From positions 24,396 to 88,395 of the forward strand of contig JAIPHA010000001.1 of assembly GCA_021735445.1 (NCBI GenBank): a DNA stretch of 64,000 nucleotides, in the 5' to 3' direction. A model generated the notes under the pieces. That model was given only the letters and a program-made list of their open reading frames with translations, was not told the DNA's origin and ran no database searches. This DNA comes from Candidatus Omnitrophota bacterium (lineage in GTDB: Bacteria; Omnitrophota; Gorgyraeia; Duberdicusellales; 4484-171). Positions 3,595 to 56,378 of the stretch are shown here, one piece after another. Made by a program: the position numbers and the translations under genes. How positions within the stretch are numbered: position 1 is the first letter of the stretch; the number at the start of each line of letters is the position of its first letter.

Positions 3595-3596
3595 AA

Positions 3597-12969: not shown

Positions 12970-12984
12970 GCAGGGGTAAGACGT

Positions 12985-35696: not shown

Positions 35697-36326
35697 ATGA
35701 AGGCTAGCAACAAGGGGCAAGTTATTGAAGGTTATTTTAAGAGAGGATCTGATTATGTTTTTGCGGTTATTTTGCTTTTTATCTTTTTTCCTTTTTTTAT
35801 AATTATTCCTTTGCTCCTAAAGTTTATCTGTCGGGATTCGCCATTATTTGTGCAAAAAAGGCTGGGCTATAAAGGTAAAGAGTTTAAAATGTATAAATTT
35901 AAAACAATGAAAGGGGGAGCAGCCTCCGGTGAGAAAAACCTTCAAATTGCGGAATTAGGCCAAAAGGCGAGATTCTATGATCACAAAGTCAATTCTGCAA
36001 TTACTCCTTTGGGAAGATTTTTAAGAAGATCCAGCTTAGACGAGCTGCCTCAATTATTTAATGTTTTAAGAGGGCAGATGAGCTTGGTGGGGCCGCGCCC
36101 TTTTATGCCCAATAAAGAGTTAAGGCAGGATCCTTTGTATGGGATTAGGTCTTCTAGACTGCCGGGGATAACCGGGCTGCCTCAGATAAAAGGCCGCGGC
36201 GATTTAACTATAAAAGAGTGGTTGCTGCTTGACGCAAGGTATGTGGATAATTGGTCTCTTTTTTTTGATTTTAAGATTATTCTTTTAACAGTTCCGGTGG
36301 TCTTGAGCAGAAAAGGCGCATATTGA
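35697..36326 (+). CDS. small PglC/WbaP-C-terminal-type priming phosphoglycosyltransferase (bacterial sugar transferase)
   Basis: One N-terminal re-entrant hydrophobic helix, YKFKTM, and RRSSLDELPQLFNVLRGQMSLVGPRP. Confidence 0.85.
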   Translation: MKASNKGQVIEGYFKRGSDYVFAVILLFIFFPFFIIIPLLLKFICRDSPLFVQKRLGYKGKEFKMYKFKTMKGGAASGEKNLQIAELGQKARFYDHKVNSAITPLGRFLRRSSLDELPQLFNVLRGQMSLVGPRPFMPNKELRQDPLYGIRSSRLPGITGLPQIKGRGDLTIKEWLLLDARYVDNWSLFFDFKIILLTVPVVLSRKGAY

Positions 36327-39666: not shown

Positions 39667-39672
39667 TCGATT

Positions 39673-41130
39673 TTATCGATTAATTAAGTATTTTAAAAAT
39701 CTTAATAGGGATTTTACCCTGAAATTAAATTGAGCTAGTGAATTAATTTTAGCCAGTTCTTTAAGAATAAAACGGGCCGATAAATATTGCCGAAGATAAT
39801 TCATTTTTACTATTTTTTTTAATTCTTTCGCCGAGATATTAGGCAGGTTTAGCTGAGCCTGGCGGAGATTGTCAGAAGGGATAAAATCTTTGTATTTAAG
39901 CCATCCGTTTTTCTTTGCCGTTTGATACAAGAATGTATTGGGCAGGGGGGAGGCAATCGCATAATGGACAAAAAAGGATTTATTTTTTTTAACCTTTTTA
40001 ATATTTTCTGATATGGTTTCTTTTGTCTCCAGCTGAGAACATCCCAGAAGAAGCGAGATCTCGGCTTCTATTTTACAATCTTTAACCAGCTTGATCGCTT
40101 TGTAAATATCGGCCAGATTAAGGCCTTTTTTAATATCATTAAGTATCGATTGATTAAAAGATTCAGTACCGATATATATCAGGCTGCAGCCGGCTTCTCT
40201 CATCAAAGCAAGGATTTGTTTATCTTTTAGGTAATCGGCGCGGGCGCAACAGATCCATTTTAAATTTAATTTTTTAATTGCTTCACAGATTGCTATTGTC
40301 CTTTCTTTATCCCAGATAAATTGGTTGTCGCAAATCTCTACCGCTTGGTAGCCCAGAGAAGCTATTTGTTTGAATTCTTCAATCACTTTCCGGGCCGATT
40401 TCAGCCTAAGAGGAGGTTTTTCCGGATTTGATTTTTTATACTCCAGCTCTATAGCCTGGTCTATAGCCTGGGGGGCGCAATAGCTGCAGCCATACTTGCA
40501 GCCTCGGGAAGCAGAGAGGATAGTGGCCGGCCCCTGGCTGAGCCTGTTGAAGAAGTATTTTCCTTTTATTAGTTGATAATCGGGAGAACAAAGTTTATCT
40601 AAATTAATTAACTTTCCGCAAGGATTAGAGATAACTTTATTTTTTTTTAAAAAGGATAAATTGTTAAGATTAAAATAGCCGGATTTACCTTCTATTATTG
40701 TTTCTGTTAAACGGCTGAAAGGCCTTTCCGGTTCTCCCCTGATAACAAAATAGTTTTTCTTTTTTAAAAACAACTCTGGTTTCCAGGTGGGATAGGCGCC
40801 GCTAAAAATTATTTTTACATCTTTTATTCGGTTTGAAATTATTTCGGCAGCTAAAAGATCTTCTTTTAACGATAGCCATACACTGAAAAAAACAACTATT
40901 TTTATAGATAGATTTTTTTTGATAAAGGCGGTAAAATCTTTTAAATTATATCCTTCTGCGGGGCAATCAAGAAAACGTGTTTTATAGTTTGCCTCTTTTG
41001 CAAGAGTAGCTAGCTGGATGAGGTGAATCGAGGGCTTATAATCAAAGCCATAGTTGCATCCATAGACTCTATCTACCGGCATTTTTTTCGAATTTAACTG
41101 TTTGGGGGGGATAAGGAATAGAATATCCAT
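39673..41130 (-). CDS. B12-binding-domain radical SAM protein
   Basis: An N-terminal B12-binding-like domain, then SASRGCKYGCSYC. Confidence 0.7.
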   Translation of the reverse strand: MDILFLIPPKQLNSKKMPVDRVYGCNYGFDYKPSIHLIQLATLAKEANYKTRFLDCPAEGYNLKDFTAFIKKNLSIKIVVFFSVWLSLKEDLLAAEIISNRIKDVKIIFSGAYPTWKPELFLKKKNYFVIRGEPERPFSRLTETIIEGKSGYFNLNNLSFLKKNKVISNPCGKLINLDKLCSPDYQLIKGKYFFNRLSQGPATILSASRGCKYGCSYCAPQAIDQAIELEYKKSNPEKPPLRLKSARKVIEEFKQIASLGYQAVEICDNQFIWDKERTIAICEAIKKLNLKWICCARADYLKDKQILALMREAGCSLIYIGTESFNQSILNDIKKGLNLADIYKAIKLVKDCKIEAEISLLLGCSQLETKETISENIKKVKKNKSFFVHYAIASPLPNTFLYQTAKKNGWLKYKDFIPSDNLRQAQLNLPNISAKELKKIVKMNYLRQYLSARFILKELAKINSLAQFNFRVKSLLRFLKYLINR

Positions 41131-42378
41131 TTATTTAGCTAGTGGCAATTCGTTTTTGATTAGTTGTCTGTATATTTTTATTATTTTTTGGTAATGGCTG
41201 TTTTCATTGTTAAAGGTATCTATTTTTTCTTTTGCATTTTGCCCGATTTTTTTAGCTATTTCCGGATTGGCCAGCAGGTATTTAATTTTTTCGGCAAGCT
41301 CACGATGGTTGCCCGGTGAAAATAATATGCCGGTTTTATTATCAGTTATTATTTCAGGGAGAGCTCCTATTTTTGACGCAAGAATGGGCTTACTCGCCTT
41401 AGAGGCTTCGTAGGCAACTAAGCTGGAGGCCTCCGGCCATAGGGAAGGGATGATAACTAGATAAGCATTTTTTACGATGCCGGCCAATTCGTTATTTTTT
41501 TTATAGCCTAAAAATCCGACATTCTTTAGCCGGTAAGTTTTAACTAAATTTTTTAAGTTTTGCTGGTAAGGGCCGGAACCGGCGATTTTTACGGCGGTGG
41601 TAGGTATGTATTGCGCGGCTTTTAATAAAACCTGGACACCTTTTTTATGGGTCAGATTCCCAAAGTAGAGGATATAATGGCCTTTGCTGTATCCTGAGTC
41701 GAATTTTTTTAAATTTATCGCATGGGGAAGATAAGTTATCTTGTCTTTTTTGATGCCAAAATCAATTAATCTTTTTTTTACAAAGCGGGAAGGGGCAATA
41801 AATAAATCTATATTTTTTGTATATATTTTTGTGATTTTACAAAAATACATTTCCAGGCAAGCCAGAAAGCTTTTTAGGTAGGAATTTTTTATGCATCTGT
41901 ACCTGACCGCATTAAAATATTTATGCCTTCGGCATTTCTGGCAATATTGATTATTGGTAAAGAGTGAATAATTTGGGCAGATAATCTTATAGTCGTGGAT
42001 AGTCATAACTGTAGGTATTTTTTTCTTCTTAAGCAGGCAGAGAATAGAGCTGGACAGATGGTGGTAGATGTTATGGATATGGGCAAGGTCGGGCCGGACA
42101 TCGTCTATTAACCGGGCGATTTTTCTTTTAGCGGAAAAAGAATAGATTAAATCCAAAGAGAGTTTTAGATTATAAATAATTCCTTTTTGCCCGGAGCTGT
42201 TGAAGTCTTTTTGGCTAACAAAGTATTTAGAATAAGGGGAAGGTTGATTCCGGTTGTTTTGGCTGGCGAAGGTGATTATCTTGTTACCATTTTTTTTTAA
42301 GATTTTTTTTAAATCAAATAAGTATCTTTCTGTCCCTCCTGCTAAAAAGTTGAATTTATTACAAATTAGTATTTTCAT
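41131..42378 (-). CDS. GT4 family glycosyltransferase with an inserted Cys cluster
   Basis: LYFGNLTHKKGVQVLL and WPEASSLVAYEASKASKPILASKIGALPEI. A CPNY...CQKCRRH...C insertion lies in the N-terminal domain. Confidence 0.75.
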   Translation of the reverse strand: MKILICNKFNFLAGGTERYLFDLKKILKKNGNKIITFASQNNRNQPSPYSKYFVSQKDFNSSGQKGIIYNLKLSLDLIYSFSAKRKIARLIDDVRPDLAHIHNIYHHLSSSILCLLKKKKIPTVMTIHDYKIICPNYSLFTNNQYCQKCRRHKYFNAVRYRCIKNSYLKSFLACLEMYFCKITKIYTKNIDLFIAPSRFVKKRLIDFGIKKDKITYLPHAINLKKFDSGYSKGHYILYFGNLTHKKGVQVLLKAAQYIPTTAVKIAGSGPYQQNLKNLVKTYRLKNVGFLGYKKNNELAGIVKNAYLVIIPSLWPEASSLVAYEASKASKPILASKIGALPEIITDNKTGILFSPGNHRELAEKIKYLLANPEIAKKIGQNAKEKIDTFNNENSHYQKIIKIYRQLIKNELPLAK

Positions 42379-42431
42379 TATTTTTAATCATTTTAATGAA
42401 ATGGAAACACTTGTCAACCAAGACTAGGTTA

Positions 42432-43271
42432 TTATCTAGTTAATAGCCCGGTGAAATAGCCAAAGCTTAAAATTGTTTTAAAGAGGAAAGTGAGTTGGAA
42501 AGTAACCAGAAACCGGATTGGATTGATAATTAAAATTAGAAAATTTTGGCAGATAGTTTTGTATTTTCTATTTATTTTAGCTAAAAAGTAACCTTCCCGA
42601 TAGCTTCTTTTTAAGAGAGAGGCAATTCTTAACTTAGATTGGCTAATAGCATGAAAGACAACCGCCTTTTTGCTAAAGCCCATTTTAAAGTTGTTTTCTA
42701 AAGCTTTGGCGGCCCTGTCAATATCTTCGCCATATTGTGAGTATTTGGCAATAAGCGGTGAAAAGCGGCCCCGGATAGGCATTTCCCGAACCGGTTTTAA
42801 GACATAATCCCGATAAGCTACATTAGAACCTAAAGGCAGTAACTTATGGTTTACTTCATCCTGTAAGCCTATTAACCAATTCAGTGAAGGCTGCCACCAC
42901 CAGGGGAAATTTATTTTGTTGCCGAGTTTAACGGCCCCTCCGATAAAATCATAATTTTTTAGGGTGTTTTCAAGGTTTTTTAGCCAGTCCTGAGAAGGCC
43001 GGCAATCATCGTCGGTAAAAGCGATTATCTTTCCCCGGCAGTTATTTATTCCGAGGTTTTTGCAAGTTCTTAGATTTGTCCTTCGGTGAAGGGGTATGAA
43101 TTTAATTCTATTTAAAAAGTTATTTTTTATAAAAGAAGTTGTTTTATCGCAAGAGCCGTTATCGATAACGATTATTTCGTAAGCGCTGTTTATGTTTTGG
43201 GTTAGAAGAGATTCCAGGCATTTTGTTAAAAGGTACTTCCTGTTGTAGGTTACTACTATTATACTGATCAT
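42432..43271 (-). CDS. GT2 family glycosyltransferase
   Basis: ISIIVVTYNRKYLL and IIAFTDDDC. Confidence 0.75.
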   Translation of the reverse strand: MISIIVVTYNRKYLLTKCLESLLTQNINSAYEIIVIDNGSCDKTTSFIKNNFLNRIKFIPLHRRTNLRTCKNLGINNCRGKIIAFTDDDCRPSQDWLKNLENTLKNYDFIGGAVKLGNKINFPWWWQPSLNWLIGLQDEVNHKLLPLGSNVAYRDYVLKPVREMPIRGRFSPLIAKYSQYGEDIDRAAKALENNFKMGFSKKAVVFHAISQSKLRIASLLKRSYREGYFLAKINRKYKTICQNFLILIINPIRFLVTFQLTFLFKTILSFGYFTGLLTR

Positions 43272-45538
43272 TTAAGATTTATTTTTAGGGATAAAAGTCT
43301 GTTTTTGCCTTTTGACAAAAAGATTTTACCTTCTTTGCTTTGGTAGTTTATCCAGCGCAGCCTTTTGTTGTATCTTAACATTTTTTTTATTTTGAATTTG
43401 TTAATCGTTAGAGTAGATTCTATTTTAGGAAAATGATGGTAAGGGCTGTTTATAGTTATTGAGTTGTCTTGGGAAACAAAATATTTTTCGCTATATTGAA
43501 GAACTTTTTTTACGCGAAAATCCCCGTTTTTTTCGTTTGCCCGGTATTGTTTATAGAAGTGAGGAAAAATTAAAGCAAACGAAGGTTGTGTTATTAAGGC
43601 GTCTTTGGTTGCGATAAAATCCAGGTTAAAGATTAATGTTTGGCTGTCTTTTAAGTAAAAACTCCATCTTTCTTTTATGGAAACGCCGGGCCAGGCCGCG
43701 GTTGCCTCCAGGCTATTTGCGCTTTTTTCGGTAATGTTCCATTTTGCGTTGGTGGTAAAAAACGTTTTATTTTTATATTTAAATCTGCCGAAAGCTCCTG
43801 TTGAGGCTAATAAAGGCACTTTTTTAGAGAGCAGGTGCAGAAAACCATCCCGGAAGTAGAGGCTTAAGCCATTTTTTGATATTTTTACAGGCTTCTTTTT
43901 TCTTTTAAATATCAGAAAATTATTCCCCGATAAATAAGGAACTTTCCCAAGGAAAGAAAAATTAGATTTTTTTTCCTTAAATGTTTTTCTCGTGGATATA
44001 AACTTTGATTTTAATTGCGGCATTTCGCTTATTTCGTTTATCTCTTTCTCCGGCATTCTCTCCAGCATAACTAGATAATCAGCGGCATTTATAAGGGTGG
44101 CGGGGGAATCTATTTCCTGATAAGAAGTTTCTTCGCTTAAAGAGGTTGAGGTCGTATAAAAAGGATAATTTTTTATAGCGCTAAGGTAAGCCATTGGTTC
44201 ATAAGTGTTTGGAGCAGGGCTGAGAAAGAAGATATTCCGATAGTAAGGAAGGGTTTGTGAGTCATGCTTAGAAATTAGCGACAATATTTTTTGGTTGGGA
44301 TAAACATTACGGCTTGGGGTAGAAGTTTTAGCTTGGCTGTTGCGAAAAATAAGGTCATTCTTTTTGGGCCAAAAACCGAATCCGTAGGAGATTGCAAGCT
44401 GTTGGAGGATGCCAAATATGACAATTATTGTGATGCCCAGATTTCTAATTTTTTTATGGCTTATCTTTGTTATGGCAATAGCTGAAATGATTGCCATTGC
44501 CGGGAGGATAGGCATAAGGTATCTTTGATCTTTGGGAAGGTAGAAAAGCGCGCCCAAAAGCAATAATGGCGCAATTAACCAAAGGTAGATTATTTTTTTA
44601 TAGAGAGGTTTAATTTTTATCCGGATAAAGGATATTAAACTAAGGGAAAAAACTATCGAAAATAAAGGAAGCAAAGAGTTGTTAAATATTTCTTGAATTG
44701 ACCAGAAGATAAATTTTAGGCTTGTTGCCAGCCAATGGGTTATTAAGGCCAAGACTGAGCCGTGGGGGGCCGAATAGGTAGGATTGAGCCAGGAGGAAAA
44801 AGTAAGGCGTGACCATATCTCATATATTTTTAATTTTAAAAAGGGGAAGGTAAATATAGCAATTATAGCTATGCCGGCTGCGGCAACTGTTATCTTTTTT
44901 GTTTTGTTACCAGCTGATTTTGTGGCTTTAATTAGAACCAGCAAAAAAGGAGCAGCCAGCATTCCCAAAAAATTAATAGATTTTATCAATAAGCCCAGAG
45001 CCGCCGAGGCAAAGAAAAGGAGGGTGTATTTATAGTTAGAGAATAATTTTGATTTTATCAGAAAATAGACAGCAAGGCTGACTGTAGCAGTAAGCGGTAA
45101 ATCCAACATATATATTTTTAGGTGATTAAATATCAGCGGATAAACGCTGATTATAAATGCTGCCAGAATTCCGGCTTTTTTGTTGGCTAAGTTTTTCGCG
45201 ATTCCATAAGTAGAAAGGATGAGAATAGTTATAAATATTGCGCTATTTACCAAGACGCCCGAGTCTTGGCTAATACCGGTAAGAAAATAAAAAGGAGCTG
45301 TTAGGTAGGCTATTAAAACACCGTGCCAGCGGTAATGAATTAACCGGTCAAGAACACGGGGGAGGAGAGGGATAAGATTGCTCTTAATTTCATCAAATAC
45401 AGAAAGGCTTAAAAGAAAATGGTGGTGGGAGTCATGTATTAAATAAGTTTGGTCAATATTTAACCAAATTATAAGATTAATTATCTGTAATAAAATGACA
45501 ATAAGCAGAACTAGCGGTACGGTTATTTTTTTCGGCAT
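43268..45538 (-). CDS. GT-C membrane glycosyltransferase (ArnT/PMT-like) with large C-terminal soluble domain
   Basis: 756 aa with about 11 N-terminal TM helices and an ArnT-like loop (RWHGVLIAYLTAPFYFLTG), followed by roughly 350 aa of non-membrane sequence. Confidence 0.5.
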   Translation of the reverse strand: MPKKITVPLVLLIVILLQIINLIIWLNIDQTYLIHDSHHHFLLSLSVFDEIKSNLIPLLPRVLDRLIHYRWHGVLIAYLTAPFYFLTGISQDSGVLVNSAIFITILILSTYGIAKNLANKKAGILAAFIISVYPLIFNHLKIYMLDLPLTATVSLAVYFLIKSKLFSNYKYTLLFFASAALGLLIKSINFLGMLAAPFLLVLIKATKSAGNKTKKITVAAAGIAIIAIFTFPFLKLKIYEIWSRLTFSSWLNPTYSAPHGSVLALITHWLATSLKFIFWSIQEIFNNSLLPLFSIVFSLSLISFIRIKIKPLYKKIIYLWLIAPLLLLGALFYLPKDQRYLMPILPAMAIISAIAITKISHKKIRNLGITIIVIFGILQQLAISYGFGFWPKKNDLIFRNSQAKTSTPSRNVYPNQKILSLISKHDSQTLPYYRNIFFLSPAPNTYEPMAYLSAIKNYPFYTTSTSLSEETSYQEIDSPATLINAADYLVMLERMPEKEINEISEMPQLKSKFISTRKTFKEKKSNFSFLGKVPYLSGNNFLIFKRKKKPVKISKNGLSLYFRDGFLHLLSKKVPLLASTGAFGRFKYKNKTFFTTNAKWNITEKSANSLEATAAWPGVSIKERWSFYLKDSQTLIFNLDFIATKDALITQPSFALIFPHFYKQYRANEKNGDFRVKKVLQYSEKYFVSQDNSITINSPYHHFPKIESTLTINKFKIKKMLRYNKRLRWINYQSKEGKIFLSKGKNRLLSLKINLK

Positions 45539-45712: not shown

Positions 45713-46492
45713 ATGATTATAAACAGAATAAAAAAACTCTTTTATCAGCGCGATATCTTAGCGGAGATGGTTTTTAAGCAGTTTAGGGCCAGTTATTCCG
45801 GAGCGATGTTGGGGGTCTGGTGGGCTATAATCATTCCTTGTATTCTCGCTGTCTGTATAAATATAATTTTTACCACTGTTTTTAAAATAAACATCGAAAA
45901 TTTCACTTTTTTTGTGCTTTCGGGGATATTGCCCTGGTTGTTTTTTTCGGCAGCGGTGGTTGAGGCTACTAACTCATTTTTAACCGATGCCGCAATGTTT
46001 AGGCAAAAAATGCTGCCTTTGGAGTTTGTGCCGTTTAAATCTGTATTATCTAATTTTTTAAGTTTTTTAATCGGCATCGGTTTTCTTTTGCCTTTTTTTA
46101 TTATTTCTAATATCCAAATTATTAAAGTTTTACCGGCTTTAATTTTTGTGTTTATCTTTAATTTAATTTTTATTTTGGGGTTGTCTCTTATTTTTGCCGT
46201 GATCAATGTTTATTCCCGGGACATAATTCATTTTCTCTCTGTGGGCCTGATGGTTTGGTTTTGGATTACTCCTGTTTTTTATTCTTTGAATATGGTGCCT
46301 TATCCCTACCGTTGGATATCTATTTTAAATCCCATGACCTATTATGTAACTTCTTACCGCAGTATTTTATTTTACGGTAAGCTCCCTTCTTTACCGGTAG
46401 CAGTTACGGGCATTGTTTTAGCTTTAATTTTTATTATAGCCGGGAATTTATTTTTAATTAAAAAAGAACCGTCACTATTAAAACAACTATGA
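45713..46492 (+). CDS. ABC-2 type transporter permease (Wzm/TagG-like polysaccharide exporter)
   Basis: 259 aa with 6 TM helices, and the ABC-2 start DILAEMVFKQFRASYSGAMLGVWWAII. Confidence 0.75.
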   Translation: MIINRIKKLFYQRDILAEMVFKQFRASYSGAMLGVWWAIIIPCILAVCINIIFTTVFKINIENFTFFVLSGILPWLFFSAAVVEATNSFLTDAAMFRQKMLPLEFVPFKSVLSNFLSFLIGIGFLLPFFIISNIQIIKVLPALIFVFIFNLIFILGLSLIFAVINVYSRDIIHFLSVGLMVWFWITPVFYSLNMVPYPYRWISILNPMTYYVTSYRSILFYGKLPSLPVAVTGIVLALIFIIAGNLFLIKKEPSLLKQL

Positions 46493-49400
46493 AAGCAGTA
46501 AATTTAGATAATATTTGGGAGAAATACCGGATTAAATTCGTTAAAGAAAACGGAGTTAGCTGGCGGGAGGTTTGGGCTCTTAGGGAAGTCAATTTTGCGG
46601 TTGAGCAAGGAGAGGTCTTAGGAATAATCGCCCAAAACGGCGCAGGTAAGACAACTTTATTAAAAATTATAGCCGGGATGTTGATGCCGGATCGCGGCAA
46701 AGTCAATGTCAGGGGAAAAGTTTCTACCTTAATGGAATTAGGGGCCGGCTTTAACCGTGAATTTACCGGCCGGGAAAATATTATTCTTAATGCCCGGATT
46801 TATGGATTGAGCAAAAAAGATATCAACATAAAGATGCAAGAGGTTATTGAATTTGCCGGATTGGGAGAGTTTATTGACGCGCCGATTAAGTATTATTCGC
46901 AAGGAATGTACCTGCGCCTTGCTTTTTCTTTAGCTATTTCTCTTGATCCCGATATTCTCTTGATAGATGATATTATCGCTGTAGGCGATGAAGCTTCTTC
47001 TTGCCGCTGTATCGATAAAATAAGGCAATTAAAAAAAGAGGGTAAGACAATAATTTTGGTTACTCATCAGATGGATATGGTGGCTCAGATGTGCGACCGG
47101 GTGATTCATCTAAATAAAGGAAAAATTATCGATGCGGGAAGTCCGGGAAAAATTATTCCGGCCTATCTGGAAACCGTAGGCAGAAAGGAAGGGATAAAAG
47201 TTTTTGAAAAATATGATTTTCGGGTTGTTTTTAACAACGGACGGTTAAGCTTATCTTATGCCGGTAATCCTTTGACCGGTAAAATGGGAGTGTCTGCGGT
47301 TTGGTTTAACCCCCGGATTAATGGCTGGGTAAGTTCAAAGGATTTAAATTGGCAAAATATAGCCAAAGATAATGCTAGTTTTATTTTTGAAGGCAGCCAT
47401 CAGGGTTTCGATAGCCTGCAGGTTTGGACAATTAGTTTAGAGAAAGATATTTTGGAATGGACAGTTAAATTTGAAGGCAAAGAAATTCAAAATCCTCATT
47501 TTGATCTCGGGTTTAGGGCCTTATATGACCATTGGGTGGTTGAAAAAAAAGAAGAAGAATTTCTTCCTTTTCTTTCTAAACTTAATTGGCAGGATTTGGG
47601 TACCCATGATTGTTTTTTTGGAGGCGTGGGCATGTTTTCTTCTCAAAAATCAGGCAGCTTGCCGGCATTTATTTTTGGTCAAAAAAAGCAAGCTCAAAAA
47701 ATCAAATTATTTAATACCGGCTACCATAATGAAACCAGAGTGGCCCAATCTTTACTTGATTCTAATTGTGCTGAATTTTATATTAGGTTATTTTCCCAAA
47801 AAAGAAATTTACTCAAATACATGGAGAAGAAGAAAAAAGAACTTCCCGCTTCATATAGATTCTGCCGGTTGGAGTATAAACATCTTCGAATAGAAGCAAG
47901 CGGACGAGAAAAAACAATAAAAATTTATTATCGAGGCAGGGAAGTTACTGCCGGCTGCGGCATGTCTGTATCTTTTCAGAGAAAAGAAGAATGGTATAGC
48001 GCCGTAAGTGCCAGGTGGAAGCTTGTTCAAAAAGAGGATTGTATTCAGGGGGAATTATTTTGGCCCGATTTTAGGCTTCGCCAGGTGTGGGAAATTAGTA
48101 TCAAAGAAGGAGGAGTATGTTGGAAGGCGGATATCGATACAGCTAAGATTAACGAGATAGACGATTTTAAAATGGGAATATTGGTAAGAGAAGAGTATAA
48201 AAGGTATGTTTCCGGACACCAGGAAGGCGTTTTCCCCAAAGATTTTACCAACTGGATGGATATCGACTTAGAAGATAAAAAAGCTGAGCATTTAGGAACT
48301 AACGCTAGCGGTGATTTACCGGGGATTATTTTAACTAATAAAGGCAGATGGATGAATGTCGTTGAAAATAGCGATAAAAAAAACCGCTGCCGGGCTTTGC
48401 AATTTAGGTTACCTTTTCGAAATTTTAAAGAGAAAGGATTTTCCACTGAGATTAATATTTTTAAAGATAATTTATTTGCGGGCAAATGCGTCGAAGAAAA
48501 AAAACCATTTTGGCCTTCCAATTTAGTTTCTGTATCCGCGGCAGCCGTTAAAGTGGGTATTGATTTAGATGCGAAAAAAATAAGATTGTTTTATCAAGGC
48601 CGGGAAATCAGCGAAAGGGCTTGTTTGCGTAACCATTTATTGATTTCGGAAAAAGGGTTTGAGTCACGGTTTATGGGTTGGCAAGTTGAGCAGATATCAA
48701 AAGATAAAGCAGTGTTAACCATGAGTATAAAAAATTTTCCCGTAGTTGAAAGATGGGAGTTTTTTTGCGGAGAAGATAATTCTTTAAAAATCAGGATAGA
48801 TTTAGAAGTTGGAAAAAAAGTAAGGATAATCGATAATGGCTTAAGCCTGGAGCTTAAAGACGGTTATCAAAGTTGGTTTACCGCCGGCGAAAAGGGAGAC
48901 TTTATTGCTAAAAAATATGAAAATGATACCGGCGCCATCCGGATGAAAGATAGTAATGTCTCGGCTATTTGCTTAAAGTCCGGTGAGAGTAAAAATTTCC
49001 CCGATTTGACTTTTGCTTTTAATCCTTCTTGCCAGGATAGAATTATTAATTTGTACAAAAAGAGGCCGGGAAATGACTATGGCTCTTCAATTGGCATATA
49101 TACAGCAAAATTATCGACCAGAAAAAAATCTTTTTTTAAGCCGGGTAGTTACAATTTATTAGAAGGTAAGATGTTTTTTGGGAAACAACCGGGATTAAGC
49201 AGTTTTCAAAAGAAAACCAATAAAGTTAAACTAGCCAGGCCGGGTTTGGAGTTGAATTTTTACCAAGGGAAAGGGAGGTTATATTGGAAGGGAAAAGAGA
49301 TAACAGCAGGTTTAGGGATCTATAGCTGCTTTTGCCATTTTGGAATTTGGCATGATTCTTCTCTTGCTGCCTGGGAAGTAATAGAGCAAAATCGGGATAA

Positions 49401-49869
49401 TTTGAGCCTGGCAGGCGATTGGGCCCACCTTCCTGTTTCTCAGGTGTGGAAGATAAAACTAAGAGAAGATAAGCGAATAATTTGGGAGGTAGAAACTGAA
49501 GTCCATCAAGAGTTAGAGTTGGAGGCAATACAAAATAATCTTATGGTTTCACCTCTATATAAAGAGTGGGCGGCGCCTGGCTTTAGCCGGGGTGAATTTA
49601 GCGAGATTTTTACCGGTAGTTATGATATATTGCCCTTTAGGGCCTGGAGCGGGCCGGCTGACAAACTATTAGTTAAAAGCAGAGAGTTACCTGATTTGAG
49701 TTTTAGGCGGGATAAAACAAGCGGGGGGCTGCAAGGGCTTTTAGAAAATAGTGATTATTTTTACCGGTCTCGTTTGATTCAGTACCAACAGATTGGTGTC
49801 GAAAAATTGAAGCCGGGTAAATATAGTAATTTTAAAGGAGTGGTTGAAATTGAGCCGAAAGAAAATTAA
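46489..49869 (+). CDS. Wzt/TagH-like ABC ATPase with an about 870-aa C-terminal extension of four tandem repeat domains
   Basis: Walker A AQNGAGKTT, signature YSQGMYLRLAF (the Wzt/KpsT YSxGM type), Walker B ILLIDDIIAVGD and H-loop VTHQ, followed by four repeats of about 200 aa each. Confidence 0.8.
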   Translation: MKAVNLDNIWEKYRIKFVKENGVSWREVWALREVNFAVEQGEVLGIIAQNGAGKTTLLKIIAGMLMPDRGKVNVRGKVSTLMELGAGFNREFTGRENIILNARIYGLSKKDINIKMQEVIEFAGLGEFIDAPIKYYSQGMYLRLAFSLAISLDPDILLIDDIIAVGDEASSCRCIDKIRQLKKEGKTIILVTHQMDMVAQMCDRVIHLNKGKIIDAGSPGKIIPAYLETVGRKEGIKVFEKYDFRVVFNNGRLSLSYAGNPLTGKMGVSAVWFNPRINGWVSSKDLNWQNIAKDNASFIFEGSHQGFDSLQVWTISLEKDILEWTVKFEGKEIQNPHFDLGFRALYDHWVVEKKEEEFLPFLSKLNWQDLGTHDCFFGGVGMFSSQKSGSLPAFIFGQKKQAQKIKLFNTGYHNETRVAQSLLDSNCAEFYIRLFSQKRNLLKYMEKKKKELPASYRFCRLEYKHLRIEASGREKTIKIYYRGREVTAGCGMSVSFQRKEEWYSAVSARWKLVQKEDCIQGELFWPDFRLRQVWEISIKEGGVCWKADIDTAKINEIDDFKMGILVREEYKRYVSGHQEGVFPKDFTNWMDIDLEDKKAEHLGTNASGDLPGIILTNKGRWMNVVENSDKKNRCRALQFRLPFRNFKEKGFSTEINIFKDNLFAGKCVEEKKPFWPSNLVSVSAAAVKVGIDLDAKKIRLFYQGREISERACLRNHLLISEKGFESRFMGWQVEQISKDKAVLTMSIKNFPVVERWEFFCGEDNSLKIRIDLEVGKKVRIIDNGLSLELKDGYQSWFTAGEKGDFIAKKYENDTGAIRMKDSNVSAICLKSGESKNFPDLTFAFNPSCQDRIINLYKKRPGNDYGSSIGIYTAKLSTRKKSFFKPGSYNLLEGKMFFGKQPGLSSFQKKTNKVKLARPGLELNFYQGKGRLYWKGKEITAGLGIYSCFCHFGIWHDSSLAAWEVIEQNRDNLSLAGDWAHLPVSQVWKIKLREDKRIIWEVETEVHQELELEAIQNNLMVSPLYKEWAAPGFSRGEFSEIFTGSYDILPFRAWSGPADKLLVKSRELPDLSFRRDKTSGGLQGLLENSDYFYRSRLIQYQQIGVEKLKPGKYSNFKGVVEIEPKEN

Positions 49870-50260
49870 AGAAGCTGAAATATTTAAGAATCAGTTAAGA
49901 GTTAATTTTAAAGATAAAGCAATCCATATTTTTTGGCAAGGGAATAAGATAACTGAAAAAATAGGCCTAAATTCAGCGATAAGTACTTTTGGCCTATGGA
50001 CTAATTCTTCTTTTGCCGAATGGGAGGTAGTTGGCAGCGGCGAGAGCTGGATGAAATTAAAAGCCAGATGGAGTTATCTGCCGGTTATCCAATATTGGTC
50101 TCTAAAATTAGGCGATAATTATCAGATTGATTTAGAGATAGATATGGAGGTAGAGGAAGAGCTTTGTATTAAAGAGACTAAGCTATTGTTGTTGGTTTCT
50201 CCGCTTTATAAAAACTGGTTTAGCGGGTTTAGGGAGGAAAATTTTCCTCAGCTTAACGGT
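47230..50260 (+). repeat. five tandem divergent copies (about 0.55-0.65 kb each) of a protein-domain-coding repeat spanning the Wzt 3' region and the next gene's 5' end
   Basis: Visible by eye in the translations (FYQGREI..., LYWKGKEITAG..., IFWQGNKITEK... and recurring W-E-V/I...LPV-Q-W-I-L blocks). The copies are diverged at the nucleotide level. Confidence 0.55.
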
Positions 50261-52114
50261 TGGCAAGAGTTGTATAATTTTAGAGGCCACTCTGTTTTAA
50301 CCGGTGTGCGTTTTCCTCTTGACGGCGCGGTTCTTCCTCCGGTAGCTTTAGAATTTAAGCCTAAGAAGGGCTTAGAAAATTATACTTTTATCGAGAATCC
50401 TTCCGCGGAAATAAATACGCGTTTTCTGGGTGAAAAAATATTATTTAAGGGCAAGGAAAGGTATTTTTCTCCCGGATATCATAGCTGGTTTAGGACAAAA
50501 ATTAAAGTATTTGAAACTGAACAAGAAGTTAGCCGGTATATCGAGAGGCAGCGGAAGAAGTATTTTAGGAAAAAGAAACAAAATGTTTTAAAAAATAAAC
50601 CTTTAAATTATAAGCCTGCTGAGAAAGTGTTGTTAGCAAATATGCCTTGGCAGGATAAGGCGCGTCAGGGGGTGCGGTCGGGATCGCGTTGGCCGCATAT
50701 GAAAGATAAAAGCGAAGGCAAATATTTGCCTTTTCCTTTTTTTTTAGCCTATAGCGCTTCTTTATTAAGGGCTAATGGGGTTAAGACGGATTTAATCGAT
50801 GCGATTGCAGAAAGAATGCAATCTGATGATTTTATCGAAACTCTTGCCGGTAAAAATATCGATTACTTGGTTGTAGAGACTTCGGTCCCTTCTTTTGATT
50901 ATGACATTAAATTATTGGAGAGAATTTCTTTATTGGGGATTAATATTATTTTATGCGGCCCTCATCCTTTGATAGCCTCTTCTGATTTTTTAGCTGAAAA
51001 TGATTTTATTGATTTTGTTATTTTTGGCGAATATGAAGTTACTCTGCTTGAGCTGCTTAAGTTTTTTTCTAAAAATGACAAAGATTTTTCCTCGATTAAA
51101 GGCTTGGTTTGGCGCAGGAGAAGCGGAGAGGTGGTAAAGAATGAAGCCAGGCCGCCTTTTGACATAAATATTTTGCCTTGGCCGCATCGGGAAAGTTTGC
51201 CGATGGAAAATTATTGGGACCTTCCCGGAGATATTCCTTATCCTTCGGTTCAGATGGTCGCATCCCGGGGATGCCCTTTTGGCTGTAATTTCTGCCTCTG
51301 GCCGCAAGTGCTTTTTGGAGGCAGCAGTTATCGGATTAGGAATATTAAAGATTGTATTGATGAGATGGAGTTTATGGTGAGAAAAAAGGGTTACAAATCA
51401 GTATATTTTGACGATGACACTTTTAATATCGGGAAAAGAAGGATGATTGAATTTTGTAATGAGATAATTAAAAGAGGGTTGGAAGATACCCCTTGGGCGA
51501 TTATGGCCAAGGCTGACCTGATGGATGAAGAAATTTTAGATAATATGAAAAAAGCCGGATTGTGCGCTGTAAAATATGGGGTAGAAAATGCCGAACAAAG
51601 TTTAGTTGACCGGTGCGGCAAGGGATTGGATTTAGCTAAAGCAAAAAGGATGATTGATTACACTAAAAGCTTGGGGATTAAGGTGCATCTTACTTTTTCT
51701 TTTGGCTTACGCGGCGAAACTAAAGAGACTATTGAAAAGACTATCGATTATGCCTTGAAATCAGACCCTGATTCGATACAGTTTTCCATAATCACTCCTT
51801 TTCCGGGGACACGGCTTTTTGAGGAATTGGAAAAGGAAGGAAAAATTTTAACCAGGGATTGGTCTTTATATGACGGGCATAACAGCTGTGTGTTTGCGCC
51901 CGATAACCTTTCCTGGCAGGATTTAAAAGATGCTAAAGATTACGCTTATAGGCTATGGGCTGATTGGCAGATGCGCAAAAGAGGCTGGCGGGGGAATCTT
52001 AATAGATTTTATAATTACAGTAAGTCCGGCGGGGTAAAAAAAGCTTTGTTAAAGAGCGGAAAATATTTAGGCTATCTTGTTTTCAAGCGAAGAAAATTTA
52101 TGGGAAAAATTTAA
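49844..52114 (+). CDS. B12-binding radical SAM protein with an N-terminal copy of the Wzt repeat domain
   Basis: The N-terminal approximately 150 aa are homologous to Wzt repeat 4 (LVSPLYKNWFSGF versus MVSPLYKEWAAPGF). They are followed by a B12-binding-like domain and VASRGCPFGCNFC. Confidence 0.7.
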   Translation: MKLSRKKIKEAEIFKNQLRVNFKDKAIHIFWQGNKITEKIGLNSAISTFGLWTNSSFAEWEVVGSGESWMKLKARWSYLPVIQYWSLKLGDNYQIDLEIDMEVEEELCIKETKLLLLVSPLYKNWFSGFREENFPQLNGWQELYNFRGHSVLTGVRFPLDGAVLPPVALEFKPKKGLENYTFIENPSAEINTRFLGEKILFKGKERYFSPGYHSWFRTKIKVFETEQEVSRYIERQRKKYFRKKKQNVLKNKPLNYKPAEKVLLANMPWQDKARQGVRSGSRWPHMKDKSEGKYLPFPFFLAYSASLLRANGVKTDLIDAIAERMQSDDFIETLAGKNIDYLVVETSVPSFDYDIKLLERISLLGINIILCGPHPLIASSDFLAENDFIDFVIFGEYEVTLLELLKFFSKNDKDFSSIKGLVWRRRSGEVVKNEARPPFDINILPWPHRESLPMENYWDLPGDIPYPSVQMVASRGCPFGCNFCLWPQVLFGGSSYRIRNIKDCIDEMEFMVRKKGYKSVYFDDDTFNIGKRRMIEFCNEIIKRGLEDTPWAIMAKADLMDEEILDNMKKAGLCAVKYGVENAEQSLVDRCGKGLDLAKAKRMIDYTKSLGIKVHLTFSFGLRGETKETIEKTIDYALKSDPDSIQFSIITPFPGTRLFEELEKEGKILTRDWSLYDGHNSCVFAPDNLSWQDLKDAKDYAYRLWADWQMRKRGWRGNLNRFYNYSKSGGVKKALLKSGKYLGYLVFKRRKFMGKI

Positions 52115-52118
52115 CTAA

Positions 52119-55100
52119 ATGGAATATTGGGATAAATTATTTGCGGCAATAGAAGAAGGCAGCGGCCGCCTTTGCGGGCCGCATACTTTACAAATTGACC
52201 TTACCGATAGGTGCAACAACGATTGTATAGGCTGTTGGGTCCACTCTCCTTTATTAGATAAAAAAGAAATTTTTCCAAATGGCAAAAAGGACCTCCCGTT
52301 TAGCCAGGTAAGGCATTTGATAGAAGACAGCGCTAAATTAGGAGTTAGAGAAATTATTCTTTCCGGTTCGGGAGAGCCTTTTCTTTATCCGGAGATAGAA
52401 GAAGTAATAAAGTTGATAAAAAACCGTGGAATTTATTTAAATATTATTACCAATGTTTTATTAATGGAGGAAAAGCTAGCCGAGCTATTAGTTAAATATC
52501 AAGTTGATTTGATAACCGCAAGCATTTGGGCTGGAAGCCCTGAAATTTATTCTTTGACTCATCCCGGCAAAAAAGAGAAAGATTTTTGGAAAATTAAAAA
52601 AAATTTATTAAAGTTAGCTTACTATAAGAAAAAATATAAATCATTATCGCCGCATTTAAAAATATACAATGTAATTTGCAGTAAAAATTATAGCGATCTG
52701 GAGGCAATGGTAGAGTTTGCTAAAGCTAGCGACAGTGACTCGGTAGAGTTTCAGGTTGTCGATATTATTCCCGGCCGGACCGATTCTTTAGCCTTAGACA
52801 GAAAACACAAGGAAGAAATAACTAATCAGCTGAAAAAAATAAGGCAGAAAGAGGAGATGGTATTTTTCAACTTTCCTCGGGATGTTGACTTAGAAGAGTT
52901 AATCGAAAAAGAAAATCTTGATTTTGGCAAAGTTTGGAAAAACAGAAAAAAAGGTTTTAGCGCTAAACAACTGCCTGATTCCTTGGTTTGCCCCAAAGGT
53001 TATCAGATTGATGAGCAACGGGAAATCGTTTCTGAGTCTATTTCTGTTACTGAGACAAAACCGGCTGTGTTTTGGTATAAATTTAAAAGCGATTTTTGCA
53101 ATAGTTGTGAAGATAACAACAGCTGCCTGGCTCGAGATAAAGCAATTAGCGTAAAGCTTCTTAGTATTTTGGGGATAGGCACTTTGTTAAGAAGAATATT
53201 TCGTTCTGATTTAGAAAAAGGTATTTATGAAAAACAAATTAATTATTTTCCTTGTTATATCGGTTGGTATTATGCCCGGATTTTAACCGACGGGACTATA
53301 ACGCCTTGTTGTAAAGCAGTCAATTTTCCTTTAGGTAATATCGGCAAAGATTCTTTTTTTAATACCTGGAACTCGCCGGCTTACAATGAATTTAGAAAAA
53401 AAGCTAAGGATTTAAATAAAAGCGACCCATACTTTGCCTCGATAGATTGCCTAAGGAGTTGTGATAATTGGGGGATGAATCTTACGGTAGGCAAAAGGCT
53501 AAAACAATTTAAAAACATCAATCCTTTAATAGTTAAAAATCAAGGCCAAAGGATAGTTATACTCGCGAAAAGTTTTACGGCCGGAAATCTTAATATCGGA
53601 GATCATAACTTTGGCAAAAATATAGTTGTAGACGGAGGCCAAAAAGAAGGCTTTGCCCGTTATCTGTTTAAGGTGCGGCAAGCAAAGAATTTTGAGTTGT
53701 GGGCTCGTTATGCTAGTGGAAGTTTTCGCCCGGTAGATATTTATATCGACGGAAAAATAGTTAAAAAGTCTGGGCTGAGTGAAATAACCGGGGGGTGGAC
53801 GGTTAATTATTTGAAATGGAATAAAGAAGCGGAAGTTAAATTAACTGAAGGAGAACACATTTTAGAGATAAGCTCAAAACAATGTATCCCTCATATTGAA
53901 CAATTAGGGTTATTCGAAACGGGAGCGTTACCCCGTCAGTTAAAGAAGGAAAGCAAAGCCGGTTATTGGCGGATGTTTAGCGAACATATTCTTGATAAAG
54001 GCTTGGCCGGCGCCTTAAGGAGAGTGCTTGATAATCTCGCTCCGGATCAGATTAAAGACCGTTATCTGGAGATGCTAGGCATTTATGACCGGCGGTATGG
54101 TTATAAAGGCCCTTTTCATCTACAGATAGATTTAACTAATGATTGCAATAACAATTGTATTGCTTGTTGGTGCAACTCTTCGCTTTATAAAAAGCCGCGT
54201 TTGTCTAAAGAAGAAAAAAAACAATACCTTCCCTTTAGGTTAGTTAAAGAGCTTTTAGATGATGCTTCTCGAATGGGGGCAACCGAGGTATATTATTCCG
54301 GGTCAGGAGAACCTTTTATGCATCCCCGAATTATGGATATTTTAGAGTATACTAAAAAAAAGGGGTTAATTTGCCATGTAAATACTAATTTTACTCTCCT
54401 AAATAAAGAAAGGCTGGACCGCCTTATCAAGATAGGCTTGGATTACCTGACAGTAAGCACCTGGGCCGGAAGCAAAGAGATATATGCCAAGACTCACCCT
54501 AATAAAACCGAATCCGAGTTTGAGAAAATAAAAGATAATCTTATTTATCTTAACAAAAACAAAAAATGTGCCCCCTCAATTAAGCTTTATAATGTGCTTT
54601 TTAATATGAATTATTTTGAAATTGATAAGATGATTGAGTTTGCGAAAAAAACCGCTTCGGAGTCGGTGGAGTTTACTTTAGTCGACACTATCCCCGGTGT
54701 TACCGACGTGTTAGCTTTAGGCGAGAGCCAGTTAAAGGAGCTTAAAAGAAGATGTGAGGATATTCAATATAAGTTAGAGCAGGAAAGTAAACTAAAAGGA
54801 AGCAGTTTGACCCTTTTTCAGTTTGATCAGTTTTTACGGCGAGTTTCGAATTCGGCCGATGCCAAACAGGCAAAATATGATAAAGGGGTAATCGATAGCA
54901 TGCCTTGTTATATTGGTTGGCTTTTTGCCCGGATAGTGCCTAACGGAGAGGTCCATTCCTGCTTAAAAGCGCACCGGATACCGACCGGTTCTTTATACTC
55001 TAAAAAGTTTTCAGAGATTTGGAATTCGCCTCAGCAAGCTAATTTTCGAAAAAAAACCTGTGTTTACCGTAAAGATGACCCTTTTTTTAGATTAATTGGC

Positions 55101-56378
55101 AATGATCCGGAAACAAAGGAAGCGGGGTGCTATAAAAGCTGTGACGATATTGGCAGGAACAGCTGGATGCATAAAAGAATGACGATGTTGACCCGGCCGG
55201 AAAAAGCTTTTTTAAAAGTTGCCGCTAAGGGCTTAAAATTGGCCAGGAAGATTAATCTGCCTCGAAAGACTTCTTTAAGACAAGGTAAGAATCTCCGCAT
55301 CGCGGGGATTCGGCAGGGGCGTCAAGCTTTTCAAGGGCCTGAACAGGTAGTGGTTGATTTAACCAATAGATGTAATTTGCGTTGCCTGTCTTGTTGGCTC
55401 TATTCTCCTTTGCTTGCCGGAAGCCAACCATCTTATGATTCATTAAATCAAGAGTTACCCGGGAAGAAGGTGTTTAAACTTATTGATGATTTAGCCTCTA
55501 TGGGCACCGAACGGATACGTTTTACCGGGGGAGGAGAGCCTCTTATCCATAAAGATTTTTTTCGCTTAGTTGAATATGCGCATAAGCGGGGATTATTGGT
55601 AGGGGTTACCACTAATTTCGGCTTAATTGATAAAAAGGGAATTTCCAGGCTTGTAAACGCAGGTTTAGAAGAGTTGTGCATTAGTATTTGGGCCTCTAAC
55701 CTTGGTACTTATTGTAAGGTTCACCCGGGGACTGATTCCCGCTATTTTGAAAAACTAAAAAATAATTTAGCTTACTTACAAAAAATGAAAACAGGTAAAC
55801 CGCGGATTACTTTTGCTAATGTAATTATGAATAAAAATGTTAACGATTTTACGGAGATGTATAATTTCGGGCGTAAATTCGGGGCAGATGCTTTGTATTT
55901 TACTATAGTAGATATTTTATCCGGCCAGACCGATTCTCTTTTGTTAAATCCCAAACAGCGGGATCAGCTAAAAGCAGAAGCCTTAGCGGTTGAAGAAAAA
56001 GCCGGTAGAGAGGGGATAGAATTAGAGTTTTTTGAAGGGTTTATGAATAGGTTGGACCAAGATAAAGAAGATTTTCAAAAAGGAGAATATGATAAATCTT
56101 TAGTCAACCAGATACCTTGTTATGTGGGATGGATATTTTCCCGTATTTTGGCCGATGGGAGCATAGCGCCTTGCTGCAGGGGGGTTAAGAAGATAATGGG
56201 AAATATTAATAAAGAAAGTTTTAAAAATATATGGTTTTCGGATAAATACAATGAATTTAGGGCTAAAGCTAAATATTTATCCAAACAAGATAGTTATTTT
56301 AAAGAAATAGGCTGCACTAAAGAGTGTGATAATCTTATGCATAATCAGGAAATGGAGAGAAGGATTTTAGAAGGGTGA
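52119..56378 (+). CDS. triple radical SAM/SPASM fusion protein (1419 aa) with an inserted beta-sandwich (CBM-like) domain
   Basis: Three colinear units carry CNNDCIGC, CNNNCIAC and CNLRCLSC. Each is followed by SGSGEP or GGGEP and a SPASM-like C-Y-I/V-G-W...PCC/SC...C...C block. The insert lies at about aa 470-620. Confidence 0.75.
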   Translation: MEYWDKLFAAIEEGSGRLCGPHTLQIDLTDRCNNDCIGCWVHSPLLDKKEIFPNGKKDLPFSQVRHLIEDSAKLGVREIILSGSGEPFLYPEIEEVIKLIKNRGIYLNIITNVLLMEEKLAELLVKYQVDLITASIWAGSPEIYSLTHPGKKEKDFWKIKKNLLKLAYYKKKYKSLSPHLKIYNVICSKNYSDLEAMVEFAKASDSDSVEFQVVDIIPGRTDSLALDRKHKEEITNQLKKIRQKEEMVFFNFPRDVDLEELIEKENLDFGKVWKNRKKGFSAKQLPDSLVCPKGYQIDEQREIVSESISVTETKPAVFWYKFKSDFCNSCEDNNSCLARDKAISVKLLSILGIGTLLRRIFRSDLEKGIYEKQINYFPCYIGWYYARILTDGTITPCCKAVNFPLGNIGKDSFFNTWNSPAYNEFRKKAKDLNKSDPYFASIDCLRSCDNWGMNLTVGKRLKQFKNINPLIVKNQGQRIVILAKSFTAGNLNIGDHNFGKNIVVDGGQKEGFARYLFKVRQAKNFELWARYASGSFRPVDIYIDGKIVKKSGLSEITGGWTVNYLKWNKEAEVKLTEGEHILEISSKQCIPHIEQLGLFETGALPRQLKKESKAGYWRMFSEHILDKGLAGALRRVLDNLAPDQIKDRYLEMLGIYDRRYGYKGPFHLQIDLTNDCNNNCIACWCNSSLYKKPRLSKEEKKQYLPFRLVKELLDDASRMGATEVYYSGSGEPFMHPRIMDILEYTKKKGLICHVNTNFTLLNKERLDRLIKIGLDYLTVSTWAGSKEIYAKTHPNKTESEFEKIKDNLIYLNKNKKCAPSIKLYNVLFNMNYFEIDKMIEFAKKTASESVEFTLVDTIPGVTDVLALGESQLKELKRRCEDIQYKLEQESKLKGSSLTLFQFDQFLRRVSNSADAKQAKYDKGVIDSMPCYIGWLFARIVPNGEVHSCLKAHRIPTGSLYSKKFSEIWNSPQQANFRKKTCVYRKDDPFFRLIGNDPETKEAGCYKSCDDIGRNSWMHKRMTMLTRPEKAFLKVAAKGLKLARKINLPRKTSLRQGKNLRIAGIRQGRQAFQGPEQVVVDLTNRCNLRCLSCWLYSPLLAGSQPSYDSLNQELPGKKVFKLIDDLASMGTERIRFTGGGEPLIHKDFFRLVEYAHKRGLLVGVTTNFGLIDKKGISRLVNAGLEELCISIWASNLGTYCKVHPGTDSRYFEKLKNNLAYLQKMKTGKPRITFANVIMNKNVNDFTEMYNFGRKFGADALYFTIVDILSGQTDSLLLNPKQRDQLKAEALAVEEKAGREGIELEFFEGFMNRLDQDKEDFQKGEYDKSLVNQIPCYVGWIFSRILADGSIAPCCRGVKKIMGNINKESFKNIWFSDKYNEFRAKAKYLSKQDSYFKEIGCTKECDNLMHNQEMERRILEG

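Follow-up and report, generated by a model that had tools for sequence, protein, structure and literature searches.

Why should the ATPase of a polysaccharide-type exporter carry about 895 C-terminal residues without annotation, and why should related sequence recur on the enzymes encoded beside it? These questions are raised by a locus in a 64,000-nucleotide stretch of a Candidatus Omnitrophota genome (assembly GCA_021735445.1, contig JAIPHA010000001.1, positions 24,396 to 88,395 of the forward strand; the whole stretch is hereafter called the window), in which the gene of a Wzt-like ATP-binding cassette (ABC) ATPase (protein record MCF7897191.1) is flanked by genes for a Wzm-type permease, a GT-C glycosyltransferase and a B12-binding radical S-adenosylmethionine (radical-SAM) enzyme. 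The extension consists of four copies of a module (hereafter R, with copies R1 to R6; Table 1) that is found again on the radical-SAM enzyme and on the GT-C transferase. We consider it an even prospect that R is a non-catalytic module of carbohydrate-binding type, which would tether one polymer to the exporter, to radical tailoring enzymes and to an external GT-C transferase; as part of this explanation, R would serve a glycan pathway of Omnitrophota specifically.

A module common to three adjacent genes

A Pfam scan of the ATPase (E<=0.1) returned nothing besides ABC_tran, and the first ~250 residues of the radical-SAM enzyme were likewise left without Pfam annotation. From the letters by themselves, a preliminary description of the locus had read the ATPase extension as four diverged tandem copies of one domain and had placed a fifth copy on the N-terminus of the downstream enzyme; both proposals were borne out. 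In BLASTP comparisons the four Wzt segments (~220 aa each) recognised one another with E-values of 2e-14 to 4e-4, the pair R1 and R3 excepted (E 0.45), and R5 matched all four (R4 1e-28, R3 8e-12, R2 1e-9, R1 5e-6), its identity to R4 (34 %) being unusually high. The motifs quoted in that description (Y-x-G-R/K-E-I/V-T, LPVxQxW and SPLYKEW/NW) are visible in the translations. Furthermore, an independent profile (21 repeat copies from six distant homologues, <=33 % identical to the window's Wzt protein) matched exactly six places at domain E<1 among the 170 six-frame open reading frames (ORFs) of the window. As these matches fall in the ATPase, the radical-SAM enzyme and the GT-C transferase, the module is common to three adjacent genes. 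The preliminary description had counted five copies, overlooking the sixth on the neighbouring GT-C gene, and had ended the fifth at 50260, where its actual end lies at ~50563. The repeats are all-beta globular domains separated by short K/E-rich linkers, which disposes of low complexity or coiled coil, the alternative that had been posed as a refutation.

The permease stop and the Wzt start overlap by 4 nt, and the radical-SAM gene in turn overlaps the 3' end of the Wzt gene, where the only available start codons are TTG, at 49844 and, better spaced, at 49850. Since a Shine-Dalgarno-like AAAGGAG is found at 49834-49840, within the last Wzt codons, the TTG at 49850 is possibly the true start; the overlap together with this motif suggests that the Wzt and radical-SAM genes are translationally coupled. 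Behind R5 the enzyme possesses a B12-binding domain (aa 301-404, PF02310, E 2.2e-8) and a Radical_SAM domain (aa 472-636, PF04055, E 1.1e-18), and its translation carries CPFGCNFC, a CxxxCxxC motif.

Predicted fold and conserved residues

The R module had no match in Pfam, in the NCBIfam matches listed or in PDB sequences (repeat profile at E<=10; window GT-C protein at E<=1). AlphaFold, given five sequences, returned a moderately confident all-beta model (pLDDT 64); given 28 repeat copies, it modelled R4 with a pLDDT of 93.8 and a pTM of 0.89, as ~18 strands with no long helix. Searched against solved structures with Foldseek (probability 1.00, TM(query) ~0.6), the R4 model agrees in fold with the galactose-mutarotase-like beta-supersandwich superfamily, and most of the structural neighbours listed are sugar-handling domains. 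On the evidence of this model, R is a member of the superfamily by structure, not by sequence. Other domains of this superfamily include the aldose 1-epimerases, accessory domains of glycoside hydrolases (GH2, GH15, GH31, GH36, GH38, GH65, GH94 and GH97), polysaccharide lyase families, OpgG/OpgD and cyclic beta-1,2-glucan synthase; R differs from them in its low identity (6-15 %), in having no Pfam match, in lacking the epimerase catalytic residues and in its company, as it is never found here on a glycoside hydrolase and sits instead, in tandem arrays, on exporter ATPases, radical-SAM enzymes and GT-C transferases.

The residues conserved throughout the family (T39, G43, W54, S57, W62, Q85, W87, Y124, W127, G135, F137, P168, N187 and R195 in the numbering of the R4 model) are mostly aromatic and polar. 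No His, Glu or Asp is common to all repeat subtypes, and the absence of a conserved His/Glu pair disfavours an epimerase role.

Architectures of the family and a conserved cassette

An exhaustive hidden Markov model search of 1.84 billion cluster representatives recovered 609 proteins at E<=1e-3 (230 at E<=1e-30), and architectures were assigned for the 150 best of these by score, to which all the following counts refer. An ABC ATPase followed by two to seven R copies accounts for 90 of the 150, the usual form being ABC-R2 to ABC-R5: 22 proteins have two copies, 41 three, 14 four, ten five and one seven, to which one ABC-R2 and one ABC-R5 protein with a C-terminal extension are to be added. 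Eleven proteins join two to four R copies to an N-terminal region of >300 aa (ten match the window's GT-C, and the two that were scanned are PMT_2), four join them to a C-terminal region of >300 aa (each radical-SAM/SPASM by Pfam), four are fusions of R with B12-radical-SAM enzymes, and the others are mostly fragments. All fusion partners of R are glycan-pathway enzymes or transporters. The extended ABC-R5 protein (P0013, RKY36779.1, from an Omnitrophota metagenome-assembled genome, MAG) combines in 1856 aa an ABC ATPase, five R copies and a radical-SAM/SPASM region; this represents either a Rosetta-stone fusion, with an exporter joined to a tailoring enzyme, or two overlapping genes run together by a frameshift artefact. 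The named members of the family are all proteins of Candidatus Omnitrophota MAGs, annotated simply as 'ABC transporter ATP-binding protein'. In agreement with the preliminary claim of novelty, our literature search found no description of such repeats on Wzt or of a module shared with radical-SAM enzymes; the exporter class is known, and the novelty lies in its putative recognition module, which is present in several copies and recurs on enzymes.

A scan for related loci (one genome per species, by a seven-copy alignment of the last-repeat subtype, and hence biased to close relatives) gave 32 loci, nearly all from Omnitrophota MAGs, some of them deposited as 'uncultured Planctomycetia'. Wzm precedes ABC-Rn wherever upstream sequence is available, and in 29 of the 30 loci with downstream sequence the gene after Wzt-Rn, which usually overlaps it, begins with R. 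This gene takes the form of R-B12rSAM, R-B12rSAM-SPASM, R-B12rSAM-B12rSAM or (in seven loci) a free-standing R protein of ~290-310 aa ahead of a separate B12-radical-SAM gene, and in most of the 32 loci three radical-SAM/SPASM units, fused or separate, come after R-B12rSAM. The window shows the identical order: Wzm, Wzt-Rn, the R-bearing gene and three radical-SAM/SPASM units.

When the best match of each repeat in other proteins was determined, first repeats found first repeats in 79 of 90 cases, last repeats last repeats in 83 of 90, and middle repeats middle repeats in 82 of 103. For the window, R1 is best matched by the first repeat of other proteins, R2 by repeat 2 of 4 in P0011 and R3 by repeat 3 of 4 in P0006. 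By these sequence comparisons the repeats are old, position-specific paralogues, and the same-position matches indicate that each has a long-kept role of its own; when 422 repeats were clustered by single linkage, first-position and last-position subtypes were not separated. The downstream R forms a separate orthologous group (mean identity 38 % among downstream copies, 46 % among last repeats). Its description as the best-conserved copy therefore reflects a peculiarity of the window, since in the 29 loci it is a separate old paralogue. Co-variation of the downstream R with the last repeat of its own Wzt was rejected: the mean scores of 56.2 bits against its own and 54.6 bits against foreign last repeats (29 loci) speak for neither gene conversion nor pairwise co-evolution.

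The ATPase and its exporter class

The identification of the ATPase as Wzt-like held, in the class of ABC-2 (type V) glycan exporters, with PF00005 in the nucleotide-binding domain (NBD), TagH and Wzt as nearest families and a Wzm-type ABC-2 permease adjoining. The NBD shows Walker A (AQNGAGKTT), signature (YSQGM), Walker B (ILLIDD, aa ~157-162) and H-loop (VTHQ) motifs. As its top NCBIfam matches are TagH (9.6e-54 and 2.5e-49) and galactan Wzt/RfbE (1.8e-46), all below the equivalog cut-offs, 'Wzt-like' is a fair label; the permease likewise finds galactan Wzm/RfbD first (E 4.6e-13), short of the equivalog cut-off. TagH of Bacillus subtilis is reported to have a membrane-spanning extension, and a Wzt extension of that kind was rejected, no hydrophobic segment being present after the NBD. 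The genomic context (GT2, GT4 and GT-C transferases, Bac_transf and sugar aminotransferases) suggests that Wzm/Wzt-Rn may export a polyprenyl-linked glycan.

The catalytic Glu expected after the Walker B Asp is replaced by Asp in the window protein, as in 70 of 87 ABC-Rn proteins (the other 17 have Glu); the first glycine of its Walker A motif is an Ala, the sole case among the 87. In Aquifex aeolicus Wzt, the exchange Glu167Gln was made to block ATP hydrolysis, and the resulting protein is described as catalytically inactive (PMC6379404).

The characterised Wzt proteins of Escherichia coli O9a, Raoultella terrigena and A. aeolicus end in a carbohydrate-binding domain (CBD; Wzt_C, PF14524) which, like R, is a cytoplasmic beta-sandwich-type domain C-terminal on a Wzt ATPase paired with Wzm. 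It recruits the lipid-linked polymer, binds the polymer cap, modulates ATPase activity and works in trans (PMC9445017); it is a single jelly roll that dimerises by exchange of C-terminal strands (PMC9445017). We take its function as a working model for R.

Compartments of the copies

Neither the Wzt protein nor the radical-SAM enzyme has a transmembrane segment or a hydrophobic stretch beyond the domain norm, and R1 to R5 are therefore placed in the cytoplasm. For the GT-C fusions, hydropathy averaged over nine aligned homologues gave 11 helices, an odd number ahead of R, and all short K/R-rich loops fall on the N-terminal, cytoplasmic side (the window's GT-C starts MPKK); the helix number and the positive-inside loops accordingly place the C-terminal R outside the cytoplasm, as in other GT-C enzymes, so that R6 is predicted to be periplasmic. 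P0139, another protein of the family, combines a signal anchor with R-R.

What the module may do

The sugar-holding fold, the aromatic and polar, non-catalytic conserved residues, the glycan-pathway partners, the occurrence on both sides of the membrane and the conserved cassette together make a glycan-binding module the best explanation of R, and the exported polymer is the obvious thing that the two R-bearing compartments have in common. The shared glycan-binding module of the preliminary description thus stands as far as a carbohydrate-holding fold and its sharing with enzymes are concerned, whereas its premise, that the repeats are Wzt_C-type domains, fell with the PF14524 search. The repeats with their six places, the fold, the extent and architectures of the family, the shared gene order and the lack of transmembrane segments in Wzt and the radical-SAM enzyme are observations. 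That R binds glycan, which glycan it binds, that binding is coupled to export and that R6 is periplasmic are points that we infer. Each Wzt NBD bears four position-specific R copies in the cytoplasm, and a Wzt dimer, as in characterised Wzm-Wzt transporters, would bring eight to each transporter. This platform would hold the lipid-linked polymer at the exporter, while R on the translationally coupled B12-radical-SAM enzyme (elsewhere the copy on radical-SAM/SPASM enzymes or on a free-standing protein) would bring radical tailoring chemistry to the same polymer, and the external R on the GT-C C-terminus would take hold of the polymer a second time once it has been exported. Modification and export would in this way be physically coupled, an arrangement analogous to that of classical Wzt with its cap-reading CBD.

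Several observations weigh against this explanation. The supersandwich is not exclusively a carbohydrate-binding fold (the fold matches also include the P1 domain of YidC and a PBCV-1 capsid protein), and some of the conserved Trp, Tyr and Phe are probably core residues and not binding residues. The placement of R6 comes from a simple home-made hydropathy and positive-inside analysis, not from a trained predictor, and aa 386-756 of the window's GT-C are strongly basic (62 K+R vs 27 D+E). Moreover, R genes that act in trans or stand free right after Wzt fit docking equally well.

Docking is the main rival: R would be a protein-protein scaffold whose R-R contacts recruit R-tagged enzymes to the transporter with no glycan contact, which we hold to be a possible, if rather unlikely, account. 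The last repeat of Wzt might, for instance, pair with the downstream R, and an enzyme complex coupled to export would result. An R-bearing gene directly after and overlapping Wzt-Rn, with AAAGGAG inside the Wzt 3' end, is an arrangement typical of stoichiometric subunits, and the free-standing R proteins of the seven loci, the single ABC-R5-radical-SAM/SPASM polypeptide and the closeness of R5 to R4 in the window all agree with docking, as do supersandwich domains such as YidC P1 that are not sugar binders and the dimerisation of the classical Wzt CBD (PMC9445017). However, the predicted external R of the GT-C transferases and the signal-anchored P0139 could not reach a cytoplasmic Wzt array, the 29 loci gave no within-locus pairing signal at this crude level (56.2 vs 54.6 bits), and four to five distinct, position-specific subtypes exceed the needs of a simple docking site. 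Glycan binding and R-R docking could coexist.

A more elaborate version of glycan binding, which we regard as doubtful, would see in the R array a cytoplasmic platform on which every subtype has its own state or segment of the polymer as ligand. The exporter would then serve multi-step radical-SAM tailoring as a checkpoint or an assembly line, and the GT-C transferase would reuse the module outside; the Walker-B Asp would slow ATP turnover, and occupancy of R would gate the transporter.

It is improbable, in our estimation, that R binds a ligand other than carbohydrate, be it an unfolded peptide (a ligand proposed for the YidC P1 cleft) or a lipid such as the polyprenyl-phosphate carrier. Some radical-SAM neighbours do score, weakly and far below cut-off, against lipid-modifying families, yet the great majority of the structural neighbours listed handle sugar, R is accompanied by Wzm/Wzt, GT-C, GT2, GT4 and sugar aminotransferases, and the R array has no hydrophobic segment or amphipathic anchor.

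Still less credible is a catalytic R that would itself modify the polymer in the manner of a mutarotase, an epimerase or a glycanase. The supersandwich domains of OpgD and OpgG are glucanases; R, in contrast, has no Pfam match to the aldose 1-epimerase family (PF01263, Aldose_epim), shares no His, Glu or Asp among its subtypes, has only 6-15 % identity to enzymes and is short (~220 aa vs ~290-340 aa for epimerases), and a catalytic domain would be out of the ordinary in four to five tandem copies.

Finally, diverged copies of the known Wzt CBD reading a terminal cap, to which the position C-terminal to a Wzt-type NBD and the beta-rich fold would be suited, can be set aside: PF14524 had no match in the window protein (E<=0.1) or in seven homologues scanned (E<=0.01) and the CBD is not among the structural matches listed, so R is a different domain in the same place; homology is refuted, and the functional analogy of cap reading belongs to the glycan-binding explanation.

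Genomic setting

The window is a glycan island, encoding an initiating phosphotransferase, sugar aminotransferases and transferases of types GT2, GT4, GT9 and GT-C. It is also unusually rich in radical-SAM domains (~22 in 15 ORFs, one under the Pfam cut-off), and the last ORF leaves the window end. Several of these enzymes are giant fusions (Table 1), of which the triple radical-SAM/SPASM protein recurs in many of the related loci. Four PMT_2 GT-C paralogues are present (21571.., 22985.., 26630.. and 43268..), together with three DegT-type aminotransferases and one of class III, a methyltransferase and an LPG_synthase_TM protein. The GC content ranges from 29 to 40 %, each 2-kb bin shows a positive GC skew (0.09-0.34), and genes lie on the + strand apart from the block 36334..45538.

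The top NCBIfam match of the R5-bearing enzyme is HpnJ (E 5e-71), and its score (240 bits vs a cut-off of 578) means that it is no HpnJ equivalog; a hopanoid reading was rejected on this ground, and a paper on hopanoids likewise gives no link. Some radical-SAM neighbours show weak scores, far below cut-off, to ladderane-type B12 radical-SAM enzymes and to the tetraether synthase Tes.

As a Wzx-type flippase and an initiating Bac_transf phosphotransferase lie ~8 kb from Wzm/Wzt, two export routes are encoded side by side. A phosphoenolpyruvate (PEP)-mutase-family protein adjoining an AMP-binding enzyme may indicate that the island also makes a phosphonate decoration, and a split transketolase-like pair may act in sugar side-chain chemistry.

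Table 1. Coordinates of the R-bearing locus and of other features of the window (positions in the window; profile, the repeat profile)
Feature	Coordinates	Strand	Evidence or content
Wzm-type ABC-2 permease, 259 aa	45713..46492	+	PF01061 ABC2_membrane, E 1.8e-10
Wzt-like ATPase ORF, 1126 aa	46489..49869	+	Pfam ABC_tran, aa 31-161
NBD of Wzt-like ATPase, aa 1-231	46489..47181	+	PF00005, E 1.3e-18
R1, Wzt aa 232-452, 'first-position' subtype	47182..47844	+	independent profile, E 2e-39
R2, Wzt aa 455-674, middle subtype	47851..48510	+	independent profile, E 2e-41
R3, Wzt aa 680-903, second middle subtype	48526..49197	+	independent profile, E 4e-36
R4, Wzt aa 908-1126, 'last-position' subtype	49210..49866	+	independent profile, E 6e-56
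R5-B12-radical-SAM enzyme, 756 aa counted from TTG at 49844	49844..52114	+	Pfam and independent profile
R5, radical-SAM enzyme aa 6-240	49859..50563	+	independent profile, E 6e-29
PMT_2-type GT-C glycosyltransferase, 756 aa, ~11 predicted transmembrane helices	43268..45538	-	PF13231, E 9.7e-12
R6, C-terminus of GT-C, aa 546-755	43274..43903	-	independent profile, E 3e-17; a further search, E 2e-14
Triple radical-SAM/SPASM fusion, 1419 aa, without R domain	52119..56378	+	Radical_SAM x3, SPASM x3
Double radical-SAM protein, 912 aa, further tailoring enzyme	56412..59150	+	
B12-radical-SAM protein, further tailoring enzyme	59160..60617	+	
ORF leaving the window end	60630..>64000		SPASM, three Radical_SAM stretches, B12-binding domain
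Wzx-type flippase	36334..37785	-	Polysacc_synt
Initiating phosphotransferase	35697..36326	+	Bac_transf
PEP-mutase-family protein adjoining AMP-binding enzyme	12139..14490		PF13714
Split transketolase-like pair	2731..4538		N-terminal thiamine pyrophosphate (TPP) domain, then pyrimidine and C-terminal domains
ORF, 970 aa	4531..7443		no Pfam match at E<=1e-5
ORF, 451 aa	10601..11956		no Pfam match at E<=1e-5
ORF, 451 aa	30581..31936		no Pfam match at E<=1e-5

Relation to known systems and significance

The exporter would work like a CBD-dependent Wzm/Wzt system, yet R departs from every testable defining feature of Wzt_C: it is a supersandwich of ~220 aa, whereas Wzt_C is a jelly roll of ~150 aa whose C-terminal strands are swapped, its position-specific copies number from two to five or more where classical Wzt has one, it is found, unlike Wzt_C, on radical-SAM and GT-C enzymes as well, and the Glu after Walker B is an Asp in most ATPases of the R family. 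On the GT-C side, the mycobacterial EmbA/B/C and AftD proteins consist of a multi-spanning GT-C core followed by an extracytoplasmic sugar-binding domain, which is thought to hold the acceptor polymer. PMT_2-R6 and its PMT_2-R2 to PMT_2-R4 relatives would have the same layout; the mycobacterial binding domain is of another fold, and the R module of Omnitrophota has intracellular copies too, borne by the exporter and by radical-SAM enzymes. The R5-bearing enzyme resembles the Class B radical-SAM enzymes that act on sugars (HpnJ, AprD4 and the GenK-type methylases) in its B12-binding domain and its Radical_SAM domain with CxxxCxxC, and HpnJ, its nearest NCBIfam family, acts on a glucosamine moiety. 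We know of no Class B radical-SAM enzyme with an N-terminal supersandwich module or with coupling to an ABC exporter.

In the prevailing paradigm of ABC-transporter-dependent glycan export, a single jelly-roll CBD on Wzt reads the terminal cap. The R arrays represent a second, unrelated solution used across a whole phylum, in which the ATPase bears two to five supersandwich modules, and radical-SAM enzymes and a GT-C transferase bear the same module within one conserved cassette. They also define an unannotated domain family (609 or more cluster representatives; R has no match in Pfam, among the NCBIfam matches listed or in PDB sequences) and offer a handle on how radical-SAM chemistry might be aimed at polysaccharides, a subject on which little has apparently been described. 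For the Omnitrophota, which are uncultured and reportedly consist of host-dependent nanobacteria, they point to a surface-glycan machinery.

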